From a phage: a DNA stretch of 39,711 nt. Position 1 is the first letter of the stretch; each line of letters begins with the position of its first letter. Both the position numbers and the translations under genes were made by a program. Positions 1-39,608 of the stretch are shown here, piece by piece. Below the pieces are notes generated by a model that saw only the letters and a list, made by a program, of their open reading frames with translations, was not told the DNA's origin and ran no database searches. The stretch lies in the sequence record PZ379184.1, one strand, 5' to 3'.

Positions 1-51
1 AGAACCTCAAGTCTCCCCATAGGCCCTCTTTCAGTCCAGACAAAGGCCCTA
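1..51. repeat. Partial left copy of the direct terminal repeat; identical to 39558-39608
   Basis: Exact 51-bp match between window start and 39558-39608. Downstream sequence to about 170 resembles the T7 terminal-repeat region. Confidence 0.8.
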
Positions 52-174
52 CCCCAGTCTATCATAAGGCTGGACCGATGGTCAAGACGTTAGGTCAACG
101 ATAGGTCTAGGCTATGGCTTAGGGAAGGACGATAGGTTGGGACTATTGGTCTTCTTTGAGTCTCTATCTGTATA

Positions 175-297
175 ACCATAAGTCACAACCATAGGTCACA
201 GCCTACCTCTCACAACCATAAGTCATAACCTACAGTCTCACTAACCTACAGTCTCAACCATAAGACACCAACACCTACAGTCATAGACCTACAGTTA
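175..297. repeat. Array of about 9 short direct repeats (CCTACAGTC / CCATAAGTC), analogous to T7 ACCTAAAG repeats next to the terminal repeat
   Basis: Recurring 9-mer at 12-20 bp spacing, read directly; similar motifs recur at 39469-39507. Confidence 0.7.
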
Positions 298-546
298 ATA
301 GACACAAAGCTATAGACTTGAGGTCTAAGACATGTTAGTCAAAGACTATATCCTCTTACACCATGGGGCCGACGATAGCTTAATCAATATTATTTCGAAT
401 TACCCATTGACTATAGGTCCAGACTATGGCCTAATAGCTTCCGTCAACACGACACGGCAACAACCGGATAGTGAAGACGCCGGTCCGGTCCGGTTAAGTA
501 GTCAGCCTGTAAGACATACGAACAACAGGCAACCGACAGAAAGTAG

Positions 547-576
547 TTGACAGGCAGTAACGACTTAAAGTAATAT
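547..576 (+). promoter_or_regulatory. Host sigma70 early promoter (A1-like): TTGACA, 18-nt spacer, TAATAT
   Basis: Consensus -35 and near-consensus -10 upstream of the early genes, at the position where T7 has A1-A3. Confidence 0.55.
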
Positions 577-695
577 GTACCACATCGAAACAACGGTGAT
601 GACCAACACTGAATGGTCTACCTGAAGTCCTCTGACTGAAGGGAATGCTCTTTAACAATCTGGATAAACTCTTAATGTGCGCCGATAGCGGCTAA

Positions 696-749
696 CTACA
701 GGGCCTTTGAGTCTACATCTGAAGGCCCTGACTGATAGTCACTAACTTA
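696..749 (+). promoter_or_regulatory. Intergenic hairpin element (R0.3-like RNase III site candidate); 9-bp stem CAGGGCCTT/AAGGCCCTG then CTGACTGATAGTCACTAAC
   Basis: Perfect inverted repeat 699-707/722-730. Flanking CTCTTTAACAATCTGG (642-657) matches the T7 R0.3 region as recalled. Related copies at 1018-1065 and 1748-1790. Confidence 0.5.
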
Positions 750-762
750 AAGGATGGACACT

Positions 763-1008
763 ATGAAACACTTAAGCACAATCACTAATCGCAATGAAGT
801 ATTCGTGAACACTAAAGGTTATGCTTGGATTCAGCTTAAAGAGATGACAGGAGCGCGTCACCGTGTGGTAGTGCGCAAGGTATCAAGCAAGCAGTTCAGC
901 AACTACAGCGTCGATACTGTGCGTATAGACAACGAGACATACCTGATAGACTCGCAGATAACCGTGAGTCCTACAGTGGGCGTCTCAGCTCCTTATTTCG
1001 CTAACTGA
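763..1008 (+). CDS. Hypothetical early protein, first gene of the early operon
   Basis: ORF with SD-like AAAGGATGG 9 nt upstream of ATG 763 (alternative ATG 754). No homolog recognised; no T7 gene lies upstream of 0.3. Confidence 0.6.
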   Translation: MKHLSTITNRNEVFVNTKGYAWIQLKEMTGARHRVVVRKVSSKQFSNYSVDTVRIDNETYLIDSQITVSPTVGVSAPYFAN

Positions 1009-1091
1009 GAGTGATTAACTACAGGTCGTTAGACTGATAGCGGCCTGACTGATAGTCACTAACACATAATTAACTTTGAGAGGATATAACT

Positions 1092-1595
1092 ATGGAACGT
1101 AATGCTAACGCATACTATGAGCTGCTGGCTGCAACCGTTGAGGCATTTATCGAGCGTATTCAGTACGACCACCTGACTCAAGATGACGACTACAGCGCTG
1201 CGCTGCATGAGGTCGTAGACGGTCAGGTTCCACACTATTACCACGAGATTTTTACGGTGATGGCTGCTGATGGTATAGACAACGAGTTCGAAGACTCTGG
1301 GATGATACCTGAAACCAAGGACGTAACGCGTATCCTACAAGCTCGCATCTATGAGGCACTTTATAACGACGTGTCTAATAGCTTGGATGTAGTCTGGTTT
1401 GAGGATGAAGAGGCAGACGAAGAGGATGAATATTGGGTAGTTGACGCTAAAACAGGCGCAATAATTGTGCAAGCTGTAGCTCTTGAGGTCGCTACTGCAT
1501 GTGCCAAGGTCAACTATGTGATAGGTCGCCACCTTCAGGTGGAAGACATCAATGATAACGTAGTGTTTGACCCTGCTGCTGAGGACTGCGAGTGA
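1092..1595 (+). CDS. 0.3: Ocr-like DNA-mimic anti-restriction protein (T7 gp0.3 homolog) with a C-terminal extension of about 45 aa
   Basis: VPHYYHEIFTVMAADGIDNEFEDSGMIPETKDVTRILQARIYEAL aligns closely with recalled T7 Ocr; acidic tail; 167 aa versus 117 aa in T7. Confidence 0.85.
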   Translation: MERNANAYYELLAATVEAFIERIQYDHLTQDDDYSAALHEVVDGQVPHYYHEIFTVMAADGIDNEFEDSGMIPETKDVTRILQARIYEALYNDVSNSLDVVWFEDEEADEEDEYWVVDAKTGAIIVQAVALEVATACAKVNYVIGRHLQVEDINDNVVFDPAAEDCE

Positions 1596-1744
1596 TGGTA
1601 ACTTATGGCCTCTGCCAGCACCACGTCACTAACGCCCGGCTTATGGTCAAGACCGGGCAGTTAAACCACGATGCGACTATGCGTCACCTGAAAGCGGTCT
1701 ACGAGGGCCGCAAGCGTATACACGACAGTTTACACGCTAAGTGA
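1595..1744 (+). CDS. Hypothetical small early protein (49 aa)
   Basis: ATG overlaps the Ocr stop (ATGA coupling); ends just before the next intergenic element. Below the ORF-track cutoff. Confidence 0.4.
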   Translation: MVTYGLCQHHVTNARLMVKTGQLNHDATMRHLKAVYEGRKRIHDSLHAK

Positions 1745-1807
1745 CAGACTACAGGTCATCAATGCTGGTGGCCTGACTGATAGTCATTAACAACTGAGAG
1801 GGAAGAT

Positions 1808-2035
1808 ATGAACACAATCACTGGTGCCATAACCAAAGGTTTTCGAGCAATTTTCGGTGAAACGCAAGAAGTATGCACCAATCATAAATTCGTACTTTCT
1901 TGCGTAGCAGGTGACGAGTTTGACGGGTTCGATAAACTGGTGGTTTGCGACCATTGCGGACAAGAGGCTATCCAACACTCAAACGGTAAATTTGAATTAA
2001 TAGACGATAGCCTTACAGAAGGAGACGGCGAGTAA
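1808..2035 (+). CDS. Hypothetical early protein (75 aa) with cysteine/histidine cluster; possible small zinc-binding protein
   Basis: SD GAGAGGGA before ATG; contains C..H, C..C, CDHC spacing. Confidence 0.6.
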   Translation: MNTITGAITKGFRAIFGETQEVCTNHKFVLSCVAGDEFDGFDKLVVCDHCGQEAIQHSNGKFELIDDSLTEGDGE

Positions 2036-2167
2036 CCTAAATAAACAGGAGAGAACCAAATCATAGCTTTACCATAACACTGACGTGATGGTACTGAGTG
2101 ATAGACGAGAGGTCATCGACTGATAGGTGGCCTCAAAGATTACCACTTAAATTGATAGAGGTTAACT

Positions 2168-2257
2168 ATGAGTGTTGGACATTGGGTCTGCCTAGCGCCA
2201 GTTGTCTGGATGATAGGCTATGGGTTATACGACTGTATTAAACGGAAATCACTATGA
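2168..2257 (+). CDS. Hypothetical small hydrophobic peptide (29 aa)
   Basis: SD AGAGG before ATG 2168; hydrophobic core WVCLAPVVWMIGYGLY; stop overlaps the next ATG. Confidence 0.35.
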   Translation: MSVGHWVCLAPVVWMIGYGLYDCIKRKSL

Positions 2258-2451
2258 GTATCGAACTATTGATAGCCATAGGCTATGGACTTATCGCCTA
2301 CATGCTGATGAGAGACATCAACAAGGCAAGTAAAGTCTACAGATTCAACTATGTACGTCGGGGCCGCTGGACTGTACGTCAACCTAACGGACGATTCCTG
2401 CGCAATTTAGCGAACGTCTGGGATATAGCAACTCTTGGGAGCAAACTGTAA
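2254..2451 (+). CDS. Hypothetical early protein (65 aa), N-terminal transmembrane helix and basic C-terminus
   Basis: ORF coupled to neighbours by ATGA/TAATG overlaps. Confidence 0.55.
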   Translation: MSIELLIAIGYGLIAYMLMRDINKASKVYRFNYVRRGRWTVRQPNGRFLRNLANVWDIATLGSKL

Positions 2452-2777
2452 TGAACAAGTCATACGGGATTAATCTGGTACACTCTATGGACGCAGAAAT
2501 GAACATGTTAAGCCTACTGGCTACCGGGTATCGTCACGGAACGTCAAGTCACTCCGCACGTCAACAGCAGGAGCGGGACCGGGTACTGCAAGCAAGACTC
2601 CGGGCTGAGGGCCATAAGTCCGAACTGATGTGTCTGGCGTATGGTGGACGACCAATCACCGACGATGGTAAACTTCTGGTATCAGGCTGGAAGGCGATAG
2701 ACCAACGGTCAACCATCAAGCACACGACTCATGGTGACTTCAGTCATCTCCACGCTAACCCGCTGATATGCAAGTAA
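2451..2777 (+). CDS. Hypothetical early protein (108 aa) at the position of the T7 gp0.7 kinase, unrelated to it
   Basis: ORF immediately before the RNAP gene; far too short for a protein kinase. Confidence 0.55.
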   Translation: MNKSYGINLVHSMDAEMNMLSLLATGYRHGTSSHSARQQQERDRVLQARLRAEGHKSELMCLAYGGRPITDDGKLLVSGWKAIDQRSTIKHTTHGDFSHLHANPLICK

Positions 2778-2782
2778 TTCTG

Positions 2783-2805
2783 ACTTAACTATCACTATAG
2801 GACTC
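2783..2805 (+). promoter_or_regulatory. Phage RNAP promoter directly upstream of the RNAP gene (TTAACTATCACTATAGGAC)
   Basis: Matches the consensus of the other ten phage promoters in the window. Confidence 0.65.
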
Positions 2806-2874
2806 AAGGTCTAAGACTCCAAGTGAAAGACCAAAGAGACTTTAAGTGAAAGACTAATAACAAGGACTTTAAGT

Positions 2875-5556
2875 ATGAGCGTCATCTCTATTGATAAACA
2901 CGACTTCTCTGATGTGTCGAACGCCATTGAGCCGTTTAACCTGCTGGCCGACCACTACGGGCAAGACCTTGCAGTCAAACAGCTTCAGCTTGAGCATGAG
3001 GCATATACAGAAGGCGAGCGACGTTTCATCAAGAACCTTGAGCGCCAGACCGAGCGCGGGGAACTGGCAGACAATCAGGTCGCCAAGCCTTTGATGCAGA
3101 CTCTGGTCCCTAAGATTGCGCAAGCCGTCAGGGAGTGGCACGAAGGCCTAGACGGGAAGCTGTCAACCTCGCGTCCTAGCGTAGCGTTCACCATGTTGAG
3201 CACTGAAGAGAAGGCCGTAAAGGACCGCTCTATGCGCATCCCCTGTGAGTCCGCTGCGGTTATCATACTGAAGGTCATACTCTCCAAGCTGGTCAAGCCT
3301 GAAGGGATACCGATTACACCGATGGCCTCCGCGATAGGTCGCACACTTGAGGACGAAATCCGCTTCGGTCGCATCCGTGACAAAGAGAAGGAGCACTTCA
3401 AGAAGGCGATAGCTGAGAACCTGAACAAGCGAGCTGGGGCATCCTACAAGAAAGCATACATGCAAGCGGTCGAGGCGTCCATGCTGGAGCAAGGCCAACT
3501 GGAAGATGCATGGGGGACTTGGAGTCCTACAGAGGCTGTCCACGTTGGCATCAAGATGCTCGAGATTGTCATCCAGTCAACACAACTGGTCGAGCTTAAG
3601 CGGTACGGTGCTGGTAATGCAGCGGCTGACGTAGAGATGGCCCACCTGTCAGACTTCTGGGTCAAGAAGATGGCACAACGAGGATTCAGCCTTGCGGGTA
3701 TCGCTCCAGTCTACCAGCCTTGCGTCGTTCCACCTAAGCCGTGGACTGGTGTCGTAGGTGGTGGGTACTGGGCCAAAGGTCGCAGACCGTTACCATTGAT
3801 TCGCTTAGGGTCTAAGTCTGCGGTAGCACGTTATGAAGACGTATACATGCCTGAAGTCTATGACGCTGTGAACATCATTCAGAATACACCTTGGAAAGTT
3901 AACAAGAAGGTATTGGACGTGGTGAACATGGTCGAGAAGCTGAACAACACGCCTATTGATGACATCCCTCAGTTGGAACCGCTGAAGCCTGAGGACTATG
4001 CTGGTGAAACCGAGGAGGAACTCAAGGCATGGAAGAAGGCTGCTGCTGGTATCTATCGCCGCGAGAAGGCCAGACAGTCACGCAGATTGTCCATGAGTTT
4101 CATCGTATCACAGGCCAACAAGTTCTCACAGTTTAAGGCCATCTGGTTCCCGTACAACATGGATTGGCGAGGTCGTGTCTACGCTGTCCCGATGTTCAAC
4201 CCTCAGGGTAACGACATGCAGAAGGGTCTACTGACTCTGGCGGTCGGAAAGCCTATCGGGGCGGATGGTTTCAAATGGCTTAAAGTCCACACCGCCAACT
4301 GCGCGGGTGTCGATAAGGTAACCTTTGAGGAGCGTATCAAATGGGTGGAAGACAATCACGAGAACATTCTGGCAGCAGCCAAATCACCGATGGACAGCAT
4401 CGAGTGGTGGGGGAGTATGGACAGCCCCTTCTGCTTCCTAGCGGCTTGCTTCGAGTATTCTGGGGTGATGAACCATGGCTTGACCTACAATTGCTCACTT
4501 CCGATTGCCTTCGACGGCTCGTGTTCGGGGATTCAGCACTTCAGCGCGATGCTGAGGGACCACGTAGGCGGACATGCAGTGAACTTAACGCCGTCTGGTC
4601 AGGTGCAGGACATCTACCGTATAGTCTCAGACCGTGTGTCAGACCAGTTGAAAGAGCTATTACTGAGCGGTACGGACGACGAGCTGGTGACCGTAGAGGA
4701 CAAGAAGACTGGGGAAATCAGCGAACGCCTGAAGCTTGGGACCAAGAGTCTTGCGCGTCAGTGGCTGCAATTCGGTATGTCTCGCTCGGTCACTAAGCGC
4801 TCGGTCATGACTCTGGCCTACGGGTCGAAAGAGTATGGGTTCGCCGACCAAGTGTTCGAAGACACCGTGATGCCAGCGATTGACTCCGGTAAGGGAGCAA
4901 TGTTCACCGAGCCAAGCCAAGCGTCTCGCTTCATGGCTAAGATGATTTGGGAAGCTGTGAGTGTGACAGTAGTTGCTGCGGTTGACGCGATGAAGTGGCT
5001 TCAAGGTGCCGCCAAGCTGCTGGCTGCTGAAGTGAAGGACAAGAAGACTGGTGAAATCCTGAAGCCATGCCTTCCGGTACACTGGGTCACACCTGATGGG
5101 TTCCCGGTCTGGCAGGAATACCGCAAGAAGGATACCACTCGTCTGAACCTGATGTTCTTAGGGTCCTTCAACCTTCAACCTACGGTCAACAAAGGTACGA
5201 AGAAAGAGCTGGACAAGCACAAGCAGGAGTCAGGCATTAGCCCGAACTTCGTCCACTCACAAGATGGTAGCCACCTCCGCAAGACTGTAGTCCACACTCA
5301 CCGAAAGTATGGCGTGATGTCATTCGCAGTGATTCACGATAGCTTCGGGACCATCCCGGCTGACGCTGAGTATCTGTTCCGTGGCGTCCGTGAGACGATG
5401 GTAGAGACTTACCGCGATAACGATGTGCTGCTTGACTTCTACGAGCAGTTTGAATACCAGCTTCATGAAAGTCAGCGCGACAAGTTGCCTGAGCTTCCGA
5501 AGAAAGGTAAACTGAATATCGAAGACATCTTGTCTTCAGACTTTGCATTCGCTTAA
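2875..5556 (+). CDS. 1: DNA-directed RNA polymerase, single subunit (T7 gp1 homolog, 893 aa)
   Basis: Collinear similarity to recalled T7 RNAP (FSDxxxxIEPFNLLADHYG, CVVPPKPWTG, WFPYNMDWRGRVYAV, HDSFGT, C-terminal SDFAFA). Confidence 0.97.
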   Translation: MSVISIDKHDFSDVSNAIEPFNLLADHYGQDLAVKQLQLEHEAYTEGERRFIKNLERQTERGELADNQVAKPLMQTLVPKIAQAVREWHEGLDGKLSTSRPSVAFTMLSTEEKAVKDRSMRIPCESAAVIILKVILSKLVKPEGIPITPMASAIGRTLEDEIRFGRIRDKEKEHFKKAIAENLNKRAGASYKKAYMQAVEASMLEQGQLEDAWGTWSPTEAVHVGIKMLEIVIQSTQLVELKRYGAGNAAADVEMAHLSDFWVKKMAQRGFSLAGIAPVYQPCVVPPKPWTGVVGGGYWAKGRRPLPLIRLGSKSAVARYEDVYMPEVYDAVNIIQNTPWKVNKKVLDVVNMVEKLNNTPIDDIPQLEPLKPEDYAGETEEELKAWKKAAAGIYRREKARQSRRLSMSFIVSQANKFSQFKAIWFPYNMDWRGRVYAVPMFNPQGNDMQKGLLTLAVGKPIGADGFKWLKVHTANCAGVDKVTFEERIKWVEDNHENILAAAKSPMDSIEWWGSMDSPFCFLAACFEYSGVMNHGLTYNCSLPIAFDGSCSGIQHFSAMLRDHVGGHAVNLTPSGQVQDIYRIVSDRVSDQLKELLLSGTDDELVTVEDKKTGEISERLKLGTKSLARQWLQFGMSRSVTKRSVMTLAYGSKEYGFADQVFEDTVMPAIDSGKGAMFTEPSQASRFMAKMIWEAVSVTVVAAVDAMKWLQGAAKLLAAEVKDKKTGEILKPCLPVHWVTPDGFPVWQEYRKKDTTRLNLMFLGSFNLQPTVNKGTKKELDKHKQESGISPNFVHSQDGSHLRKTVVHTHRKYGVMSFAVIHDSFGTIPADAEYLFRGVRETMVETYRDNDVLLDFYEQFEYQLHESQRDKLPELPKKGKLNIEDILSSDFAFA

Positions 5557-39545: not shown

Positions 39546-39608
39546 TCTCACAGTTCAAGAACCTCAAGTCTCCCCATAGGCCCTCTTTCAGTCCAGACAA
39601 AGGCCCTA
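39546..39608. repeat. Right copy of the terminal repeat, starting TCTCACAGT as in T7; only 63 bp of it present here
   Basis: 39558-39608 equals 1-51; TCTCACAGTTCA matches the recalled first bases of the T7 genome (TCTCACAGTGTA). Confidence 0.7.

Follow-up and report, generated by a model that had tools for sequence, protein, structure and literature searches.

A long form of the anti-restriction protein Ocr with an inserted domain, and the gene upstream of it, in the early region of a K1F-like coliphage

Ocr is the textbook DNA-mimic anti-restriction protein, and it is known both to trigger PARIS and to inhibit BREX. The phage genome analyzed here (sequence record PZ379184.1; 39,711 nucleotides, referred to below as the window) encodes an Ocr-like protein of 167 amino acids (aa) in gene 0.3 (1092-1595, + strand), preceded by gene 0.2 (763..1008, + strand), which encodes an 81-aa basic, predicted all-beta early protein homologous to K1F gp0.2. 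The locus raises two questions: what the additional C-terminal sequence contributes to a DNA mimic, and whether the upstream gene belongs functionally to it. An earlier note, made from the sequence alone, had described the two genes as an early anti-defense pair, the second member being an Ocr-like protein with a 45-aa C-terminal extension.

A megablast search with bases 600-2900 matched 241 phage records, and the best relatives were Escherichia phages of the genus Kayfunavirus, with LM33_P1 (98.2%) and PSK1 (95% over 100% of the query) as the closest matches; judged by these matches, the window is a K1F-like (Kayfunavirus) coliphage genome. In the annotation of its relatives, the upstream gene is a "hypothetical protein" and the ocr-like gene is "protein Ocr" or "ocr-like anti-restriction protein", and the RefSeq record of K1F already gives them the names 0.2 and 0.3. 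The finding thus deals with annotated genes: neither sequence is new, many public phage genomes carry annotations of both, and the long-Ocr architecture has been in the databases since the K1F genome. In the literature searched, no description of the long-Ocr domain or of gp0.2 was found.

The Ocr core and its inserted domain

The first 103 residues of the gene 0.3 product (1092..1400, + strand) form a predicted helical DNA-mimic domain that very probably belongs to the Ocr family. Residues 8-94 match the Pfam family PF08684 "DNA mimic ocr" with an E-value of 5.2e-28 (97.9 bits against a cut-off of 25; profile positions 6-92 of 101), the protein matches PHROG 2568 "ocr-like anti-restriction" (E 2e-51), and identity to T7 Ocr is 58% across residues 17-94. 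A sequence comparison with solved structures linked it to T7 Ocr chains only (1s7z and others, E 1.3e-23), and a Foldseek search of the PDB with the whole-chain AlphaFold2 (AF2) model, in which the core reaches only moderate confidence (mean predicted local distance difference test score, pLDDT, 68.9), returned six Ocr chains at probability 0.99-1.0, consistent with the helical Ocr fold. The dimer-interface residues F54 and L82 both align with T7; F54 is invariant in the homologues and L82 is conserved in at least 90% of them. The charge is similar as well, with 39 acidic and 8 basic residues and an isoelectric point (pI) of 4.05, against 34 and 6 and the same pI in T7 Ocr. The ratio of nonsynonymous to synonymous substitution rates (dN/dS), calculated by the Nei-Gojobori method from eight long ocr genes (28 pairs), is 0.18 for the core. 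These results agree with the Ocr-like core described in the earlier note, as does the difference in length from the 117-aa T7 protein. By tblastn, the core was found in 573 phage records; the allele in the window is that of LM33_P1, to which it is identical over residues 1-100 and 113-167.

Downstream of the core, three further segments can be distinguished on the + strand: a poly-acidic linker (residues 104-113, EDEEADEEDE; 1401..1430), a globular domain (residues 114-161; 1431..1574), and the terminal acidic motif AAEDCE with the stop codon (1575..1595). The EDCE end is common to short Ocr proteins. To define the junction, the protein from the window was aligned with K1F gp0.3 (169 aa), CR44b gp0.3 (114 aa), a Przondovirus Ocr (116 aa) and T7 Ocr. 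The short forms of the Kayfunavirus CR44b and of Przondovirus end in ...VWFEAEESDEE-DCE, while the long form reads ...EEADEEDE-[YWVVDAKTG...VVFDPAA]-EDCE, and the DNA alignment of long and short genes shows a single in-frame indel of ~160 bp with GAGGA microhomology at its edges. The protein junction and the DNA indel together place the domain inside the acidic tail, between the linker and the terminal EDCE. The additional sequence noted earlier is therefore present, but it comprises ~50 rather than 45 aa and is an insertion before the shared EDCE, not a simple tail. Its description as hydrophobic also stands (grand average of hydropathicity +0.50), whereas "non-acidic" holds only roughly: the domain has 6 acidic and 3 basic residues (net charge -3), compared with a linker that is 90% acidic. 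The length of the linker varies among homologues from ~2 residues, in CLB_P1, to ~24.

The inserted domain is recurrent and conserved. All of the best 120 protein clusters measure 162-179 aa, and the domain is present in 39 of 40 aligned clusters, the exception being one fusion variant. A tblastn search located it in 71 phage genomes, always within an ocr-like gene and including K1F gp0.3, which corresponds to 71 of the 573 records encoding an Ocr core; among Kayfunavirus long Ocr proteins, domain identity is 69-100%. AF2 modeling, based on a 41-sequence alignment, predicted a strand-strand-helix-strand-strand arrangement (strands at residues 114-118 and 124-129, a helix at 131-143, strands at 148-151 and 157-159) with a pLDDT of 84-89 over residues 111-160, falling below 50 in the linker at residues 104-110. 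Selection is unevenly distributed along the domain: the overall dN/dS of 0.28 resolves into 0.23 for strands 1-2, 0.72 for the helix, and 0.05 (dS 0.86) for the hairpin of strands 3 and 4. The invariant residues cluster in this acidic hairpin, G145-x-H147-x-x-V150-E-D-I-N-D-N-V-V-F-D-P161 (G-x-H-x-x-VEDINDNVVFDP). The domain is thus real, under purifying selection and confidently predicted to be folded, in line with the earlier suggestion of an extra module. The same note had counted it against its reading if the extension were predicted disordered and dispensable; disorder is not what the model predicts, while on the side of dispensability, the ocr gene of CR44b does without the domain.

Searches for relatives of the domain returned little. 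Neither Pfam nor NCBIfam contains a family for it, and the best matches of a PDB sequence search reached only E 0.06-0.2, to a botulinum toxin segment and to a cadherin "KVKDINDN" motif. The weak PepSY and cadherin "DxNDN"-like matches were not significant and were set aside as motif-level chance. A profile built from 27 domain sequences, searched against 1.84 billion representatives, retrieved only two large repetitive proteins with no informative Pfam domain. That search did not return the domain's own family, whose 50%-identity representative is presumably a short Ocr, and against so large a library a profile of 56 positions is of limited power. In structural comparison, the Foldseek search of the PDB with the whole-chain model gave, besides Ocr, weak matches to the C-terminal domain of L7/L12 (0.47) and to T4 Dmd (0.18), and none to ClpS.

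Gene 0.2 and its distribution

The start of gene 0.2 is most likely ATG 763. An AGGA sequence at 751-754 overlaps the alternative ATG 754, which would give an 84-aa product, and lies 8 nucleotides (nt) ahead of ATG 763; Kayfunavirus homologues begin with MKHLS, and related genomes annotate 81 aa. The product matches all 77 positions of the PHROG 10124 profile (function unknown; E 1e-39) and shares 96% identity with K1F gp0.2. Across 32 sequences of the family, 17 columns are invariant, and the dN/dS of the gene is 0.16; the family comprises 41 clusters in a single-sequence search and 71 in a profile search, and all contigs on record are phage-sized. The upstream open reading frame (ORF), previously reported as 81-84 aa with no assigned function, is accordingly a real gene of that kind, with the shorter length being likelier. 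The protein has a pI of 9.7, and AF2 predicts six beta strands (pLDDT 72.6 overall), an all-beta model that corresponds to no known fold. The C-terminal peptide SAPYFAN is conserved and modeled at low confidence, a combination that may suggest docking onto a host protein.

The gp0.2 family is spread over T7-like, N4-like, phiKT-like and phi92-like phages. In Kayfunavirus it is followed by the long Ocr, and in Klebsiella phages of the genus Przondovirus by a short Ocr of 112 aa. In the Ermolevavirus PGT2, the homologue directly follows a gene for S-adenosylmethionine (SAM) lyase; in a T3-like metagenomic phage it is the first early gene, two genes before a SAM lyase and upstream of a T7-type kinase. 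Within the T7-related podophages (Autographiviridae), gp0.2 is thus found beside or near Ocr or SAM lyase in four lineages. Outside them, it is placed behind the homologues of N4 gp1/gp2 in the early region of Gamaleyavirus (N4-like) phages, and is also found in arrays of small unknown genes in the Phapecoctavirus phiWec179 and in a 151-kb "Pseudomonas" phage; in the N4-like and phi92-like phages, no ocr or SAM-lyase match was detected among the neighboring genes scanned or on record. Long Ocr also occurs without gp0.2, in SH3, EPr2, Ro45lw and KE18, and ST31 carries gp0.2 and reportedly no ocr.

Given this distribution, gp0.2 is best described as a mobile early accessory gene rather than a fixed partner of the long Ocr, and the functional or obligate "pair" proposed earlier is largely refuted and was rejected. 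We consider it rather likely that gp0.2 is an independent host-directed early factor, acting in anti-defense or in host takeover. The anti-defense role is a candidate one, weaker than first stated, and its basis is position and neighborhood only.

The slot upstream of gene 0.3 is itself variable. It is empty in SH3, EPr2, Ro45lw and KE18, and in CLB_P1 (452-772 of the locus) it holds an unrelated gene of 106 aa whose annotation notes a similarity to rV5 gp170. The T7 record examined shows no annotated gene upstream of 0.3, as the earlier note had said. Early accessory genes seem to have a small hotspot in this slot.

Two further observations were made in the neighborhoods of gp0.2 homologues. 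In the Gamaleyavirus vB_Eco_F22, a YAcAr / YspA-related SLOG-family protein (PF10686, E 4.9e-12; locus 3459-3815) is encoded two genes downstream of the gp0.2 homologue and is a possible nucleotide-binding early protein. In the 151-kb record OR584014.1 ("Pseudomonas phage PsgM04F"), the gp0.2 homologue is 72% identical to the coliphage protein and its gene array is colinear with that of the E. coli Phapecoctavirus phiWec179, with which the stated Pseudomonas host looks at odds.

The probable early transcription unit

The best explanation of the region is that it corresponds to the leftmost of the early (class I) transcription units in a Kayfunavirus genome. A candidate sigma-70-type early promoter lies upstream of the first early gene (547..576, + strand; TTGACA, 18-nt spacer, TAATAT). 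It is the top consensus match within positions 1-3000 (10 of 12 positions); the number of promoter-like matches in the region does not exceed that in shuffled sequences, and the candidate rests on its position and consensus only. Three RNase III-like hairpins follow on the + strand. The first (690..746; -22.6 kcal/mol, z -4.25) has a variable upper stem followed by the invariant CTGACTGATAGTCACTAAC and ends 17 nt before ATG 763; the second (1010..1063; -23.3 kcal/mol, z -4.39) separates gene 0.2 from gene 0.3 and is kept, with covariation, in nine related phages; the third (1740..1792; -19.0 kcal/mol, z -2.31; motif CTGACTGATAGTCATTAAC) closes the 0.3-0.4 unit. The start codons 3' of them are ATG 763, ATG 1092 and ATG 1808. 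Each hairpin ends in the 19-nt motif CTGACTGATAGTCA(C/T)TAAC, which occurs three times in the window and only in the early region, and the upper stems covary between copies and between phages, with double changes in 4 of 13 pairs. An Rfam scan of the whole window matched no family, the three hairpins included.

The early mRNA of T7 is processed by RNase III, and by analogy the three hairpins are probably RNase III processing sites. Cleavage there would release gene 0.2 as one message and gene 0.3 with the following 49-aa ORF as another. Both genes lie on the + strand between the promoter-like site and gene 1, the RNA polymerase gene (2875-5556), in a hairpin-bounded unit; their early character, assumed in the earlier note, is borne out by the sigma-70-like promoter candidate upstream and by the RNase III-like hairpin ahead of each.

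The 49-aa ORF downstream of ocr (1595..1744, + strand) is gp0.4-like: its product is 39% identical to that of T7 gene 0.4 (pairwise E 1e-6), it matches PHROG 5058, and its homologue in K1F is labeled gp0.35. Its start overlaps the ocr stop codon (TGATG), so that it would be translationally coupled to gene 0.3, and genes 0.3 and 0.4 of T7 show the same overlapping-stop arrangement. In T7, gp0.4 is an inhibitor of FtsZ. One variant of the long Ocr (protein P0099) is joined, after GRHLK, to the C-terminal part of a gp0.4-like protein (…KAVYEGHKRIHDSLHA). Compared with positions 1530-1744 of the window, this fusion has lost the conserved last hairpin of the inserted domain, and it looks like a deletion between RHLK-coding stretches common to both genes.

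Other features of the region are peripheral. Upstream of the best early promoter candidate, a 72-aa ORF (332-550, + strand) matches K1F "gp0.1"; its counterpart in CR44b carries an internal stop and is labeled a pseudogene, and the coding status of the ORF in the window is doubtful. Positions 1744-2875 contain only small ORFs (PHROGs 32657, 2385 and 7066, all of unknown function) and no T7-type gene 0.7 protein kinase, a kinase of this type being present in Przondovirus and in the T3-like metagenomic phage. Finally, bases 1-51 are repeated exactly at 39558-39608 and are followed there by ~100 unrelated bases. As the repeat gives way to unrelated sequence, the end of the window is not a clean direct terminal repeat, such as is annotated in the relatives SH3 and Ro45lw (~180 bp); the mismatch may be an assembly or permutation effect.

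Proposed role, alternatives and comparison with known systems

Taken as a whole, the locus can be read as a composite of an Ocr core, an accessory binding domain and a separate gp0.2 factor, a reading that we hold to be slightly better than even. By analogy with T7, the core would dimerize as a bent mimic of B-DNA and would fill the DNA groove of the methyltransferase cores of type I restriction-modification enzymes and of BREX BrxX/PglX; this blocking of the groove would prevent restriction of the entering genome. Each T7 Ocr monomer has its C-terminus at the distal tip. From this geometry it follows that the dimer of the long form would have a small domain attached to either end by a flexible poly-acidic tether. 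As an accessory module for protein binding, the domain would use its invariant acidic hairpin (HLxVEDINDNVVFDP) to contact the same enzyme complexes a second time or to engage another host factor, and would thereby widen or strengthen inhibition on wild, defense-rich E. coli. The chances that the domain is a functional binding module appear to us evenly balanced. It would not be required for basic Ocr function, since CR44b, of the same genus, has a clean deletion of it. The gp0.2 protein would be a separate host-directed early factor whose gene passes from one phage family to another and tends to come to lie next to the anti-restriction gene that a given phage has.

Several points weigh against this composite. 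The anti-restriction activity of the long form is deduced from homology only, and the searches of 1.84 billion representatives, Pfam, NCBIfam and the PDB gave no lead to a partner of the domain. The weak Foldseek matches leave the fold assignment of the domain ambiguous, and the AF2 model, of moderate confidence for the core, does not fix the placement of the domain relative to it. With a nearly neutral rate of evolution in its helix and a clean loss in CR44b, the domain may make only a small or conditional contribution. Likewise, gp0.2 may be found near anti-restriction genes simply since both are leftmost early genes.

Among the alternatives, the domain might have no separate target and be a structural cap or an element of solubility or self-association, nearly neutral for Ocr function. 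This is unlikely in our estimate, though it accounts for the natural loss in CR44b, where the core is 84.5% identical over the aligned part, for the fact that most Ocr-encoding phages lack the domain, and for the dN/dS of the helix. Against it stands the essentially invariant strand 3-strand 4 hairpin; the exposed acidic and polar residues E151, D152, N154, D155 and D160 are conserved in more than 100 clusters, a pattern more typical of an interaction surface. To a joint alternative we give a similarly low probability; here the domain would be an effector module restricted to this lineage and with a second, independent host target, for example acting against Ocr-sensing abortive infection or engaging ClpA by a ClpS-like surface, and gp0.2 would be an anti-defense protein traveling among T7-like, N4-like, phiKT-like and phi92-like phages.

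A more specific version makes the domain an anti-sensor against systems of the PARIS (AriA/AriB) type instead of an additional inhibitor, hindering the capture of Ocr sterically or stabilizing its dimer. PARIS senses T7 Ocr via the dimer-interface residues F54/L82 and binds it as a monomer (PMC9122126, PMC10802264); both residues are unchanged here, and the long form would consequently need another escape from sensing. The variable presence of the domain and its fast-evolving helix are also what would be expected of an element in an arms race. Judged from the T7 structure, however, the domain would sit where the long C-terminal helix ends, well away from the dimer interface, and in CLB_P1, where the linker is almost absent, the domain cannot reach that interface, so that the explanation would not serve for all variants. 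We regard it as improbable.

Lower still do we rate a ClpS-like module that would engage the ClpA N-domain/N-degron machinery and either link Ocr to ClpAP proteolysis or shield it from this. The 27 domain sequences gave zero matches to the Pfam ClpS family at E-values up to 10, and alignment of the domain profile with E. coli ClpS by hhalign (using a sequence identical to 1mbu_C) yielded a probability of 0.4%. Literature on "Ocr" with "ClpS" consisted only of unrelated uses of the abbreviations.

That gp0.2 and the long Ocr form a two-component anti-defense system is very improbable: the genes are adjacent in K1F-like phages, and gp0.2 recurs next to Ocr or SAM lyase in the four lineages named above, but an RNase III-like site lies between the two genes, the long Ocr is found without gp0.2 in four phages and with an unrelated gene in its place in CLB_P1, and gp0.2 in turn occurs without Ocr in ST31 and apart from any neighboring ocr or SAM-lyase match in N4-like and phi92-like phages. 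That the extension is an artefact of frameshift or read-through, or a disordered tail without meaning, has a negligible probability and is refuted by the recurrence of the same frame and domain in 71 independent genomes of phages and in over 100 protein clusters, by the confident structure prediction and by purifying selection.

The locus is no surprise and draws its interest mainly from the clear experimental question that it poses, with long and short alleles occurring naturally and a mobile gene next door. The long Ocr and the precise deletion of the domain within the same genus provide a ready allele pair with which the benefit of an added protein-binding module to a DNA mimic can be examined. 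The occurrence of gp0.2 in at least four phage groups, repeatedly beside anti-restriction genes, makes it a reasonable candidate for anti-defense screens. Since Kayfunaviruses (K1F, LM33_P1, CLB_P1) are therapeutic candidates against pathogenic E. coli, their counter-defense content is also of practical relevance.

In comparison with known systems, the T3-type gp0.3 SAM lyase occupies the equivalent early anti-restriction slot, with gp0.2 homologues beside it in PGT2 and in the T3-like metagenomic phage; it is an unrelated protein that acts by cleavage of SAM and not by DNA mimicry, and it is absent from the window. The ClpS adaptor (3o2o, 4yjm, 9ayn) differs from the inserted domain, which is half its size and has another order of secondary-structure elements; the two share no sequence or profile similarity, and Foldseek did not connect them. 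T7 Ocr (gp0.3; 1s7z; PF08684) has in common with the protein described here the homologous core, F54/L82, the strongly negative charge with a pI of ~4, the early gene position and the coupling to a gp0.4-like ORF. It differs in its 117 aa without the inserted domain, compared with 167 aa and a ~50-aa domain within the acidic tail; T7 also has no annotated gene upstream of 0.3 where gene 0.2 stands here, and its gene 0.7 kinase is missing here between 0.3 and gene 1. Closer are the short Ocr proteins of CR44b (114 aa) and of the Przondovirus Klebsiella phages (112-116 aa), which share more than 80% core identity, the same acidic run and a DCE/DC end, and lack exactly the inserted domain, at a junction with GAGGA microhomology. 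The long Ocr proteins of other kayfunaviruses (K1F gp0.3, LM33_P1, SH3, CLB_P1, Ro45lw and EPr2), annotated as antirestriction or ocr-like, have the same core-linker-domain-EDCE architecture with allelic differences only. On present evidence, the long Ocr is therefore an annotated yet unstudied variant of a known protein and not a new kind of system.

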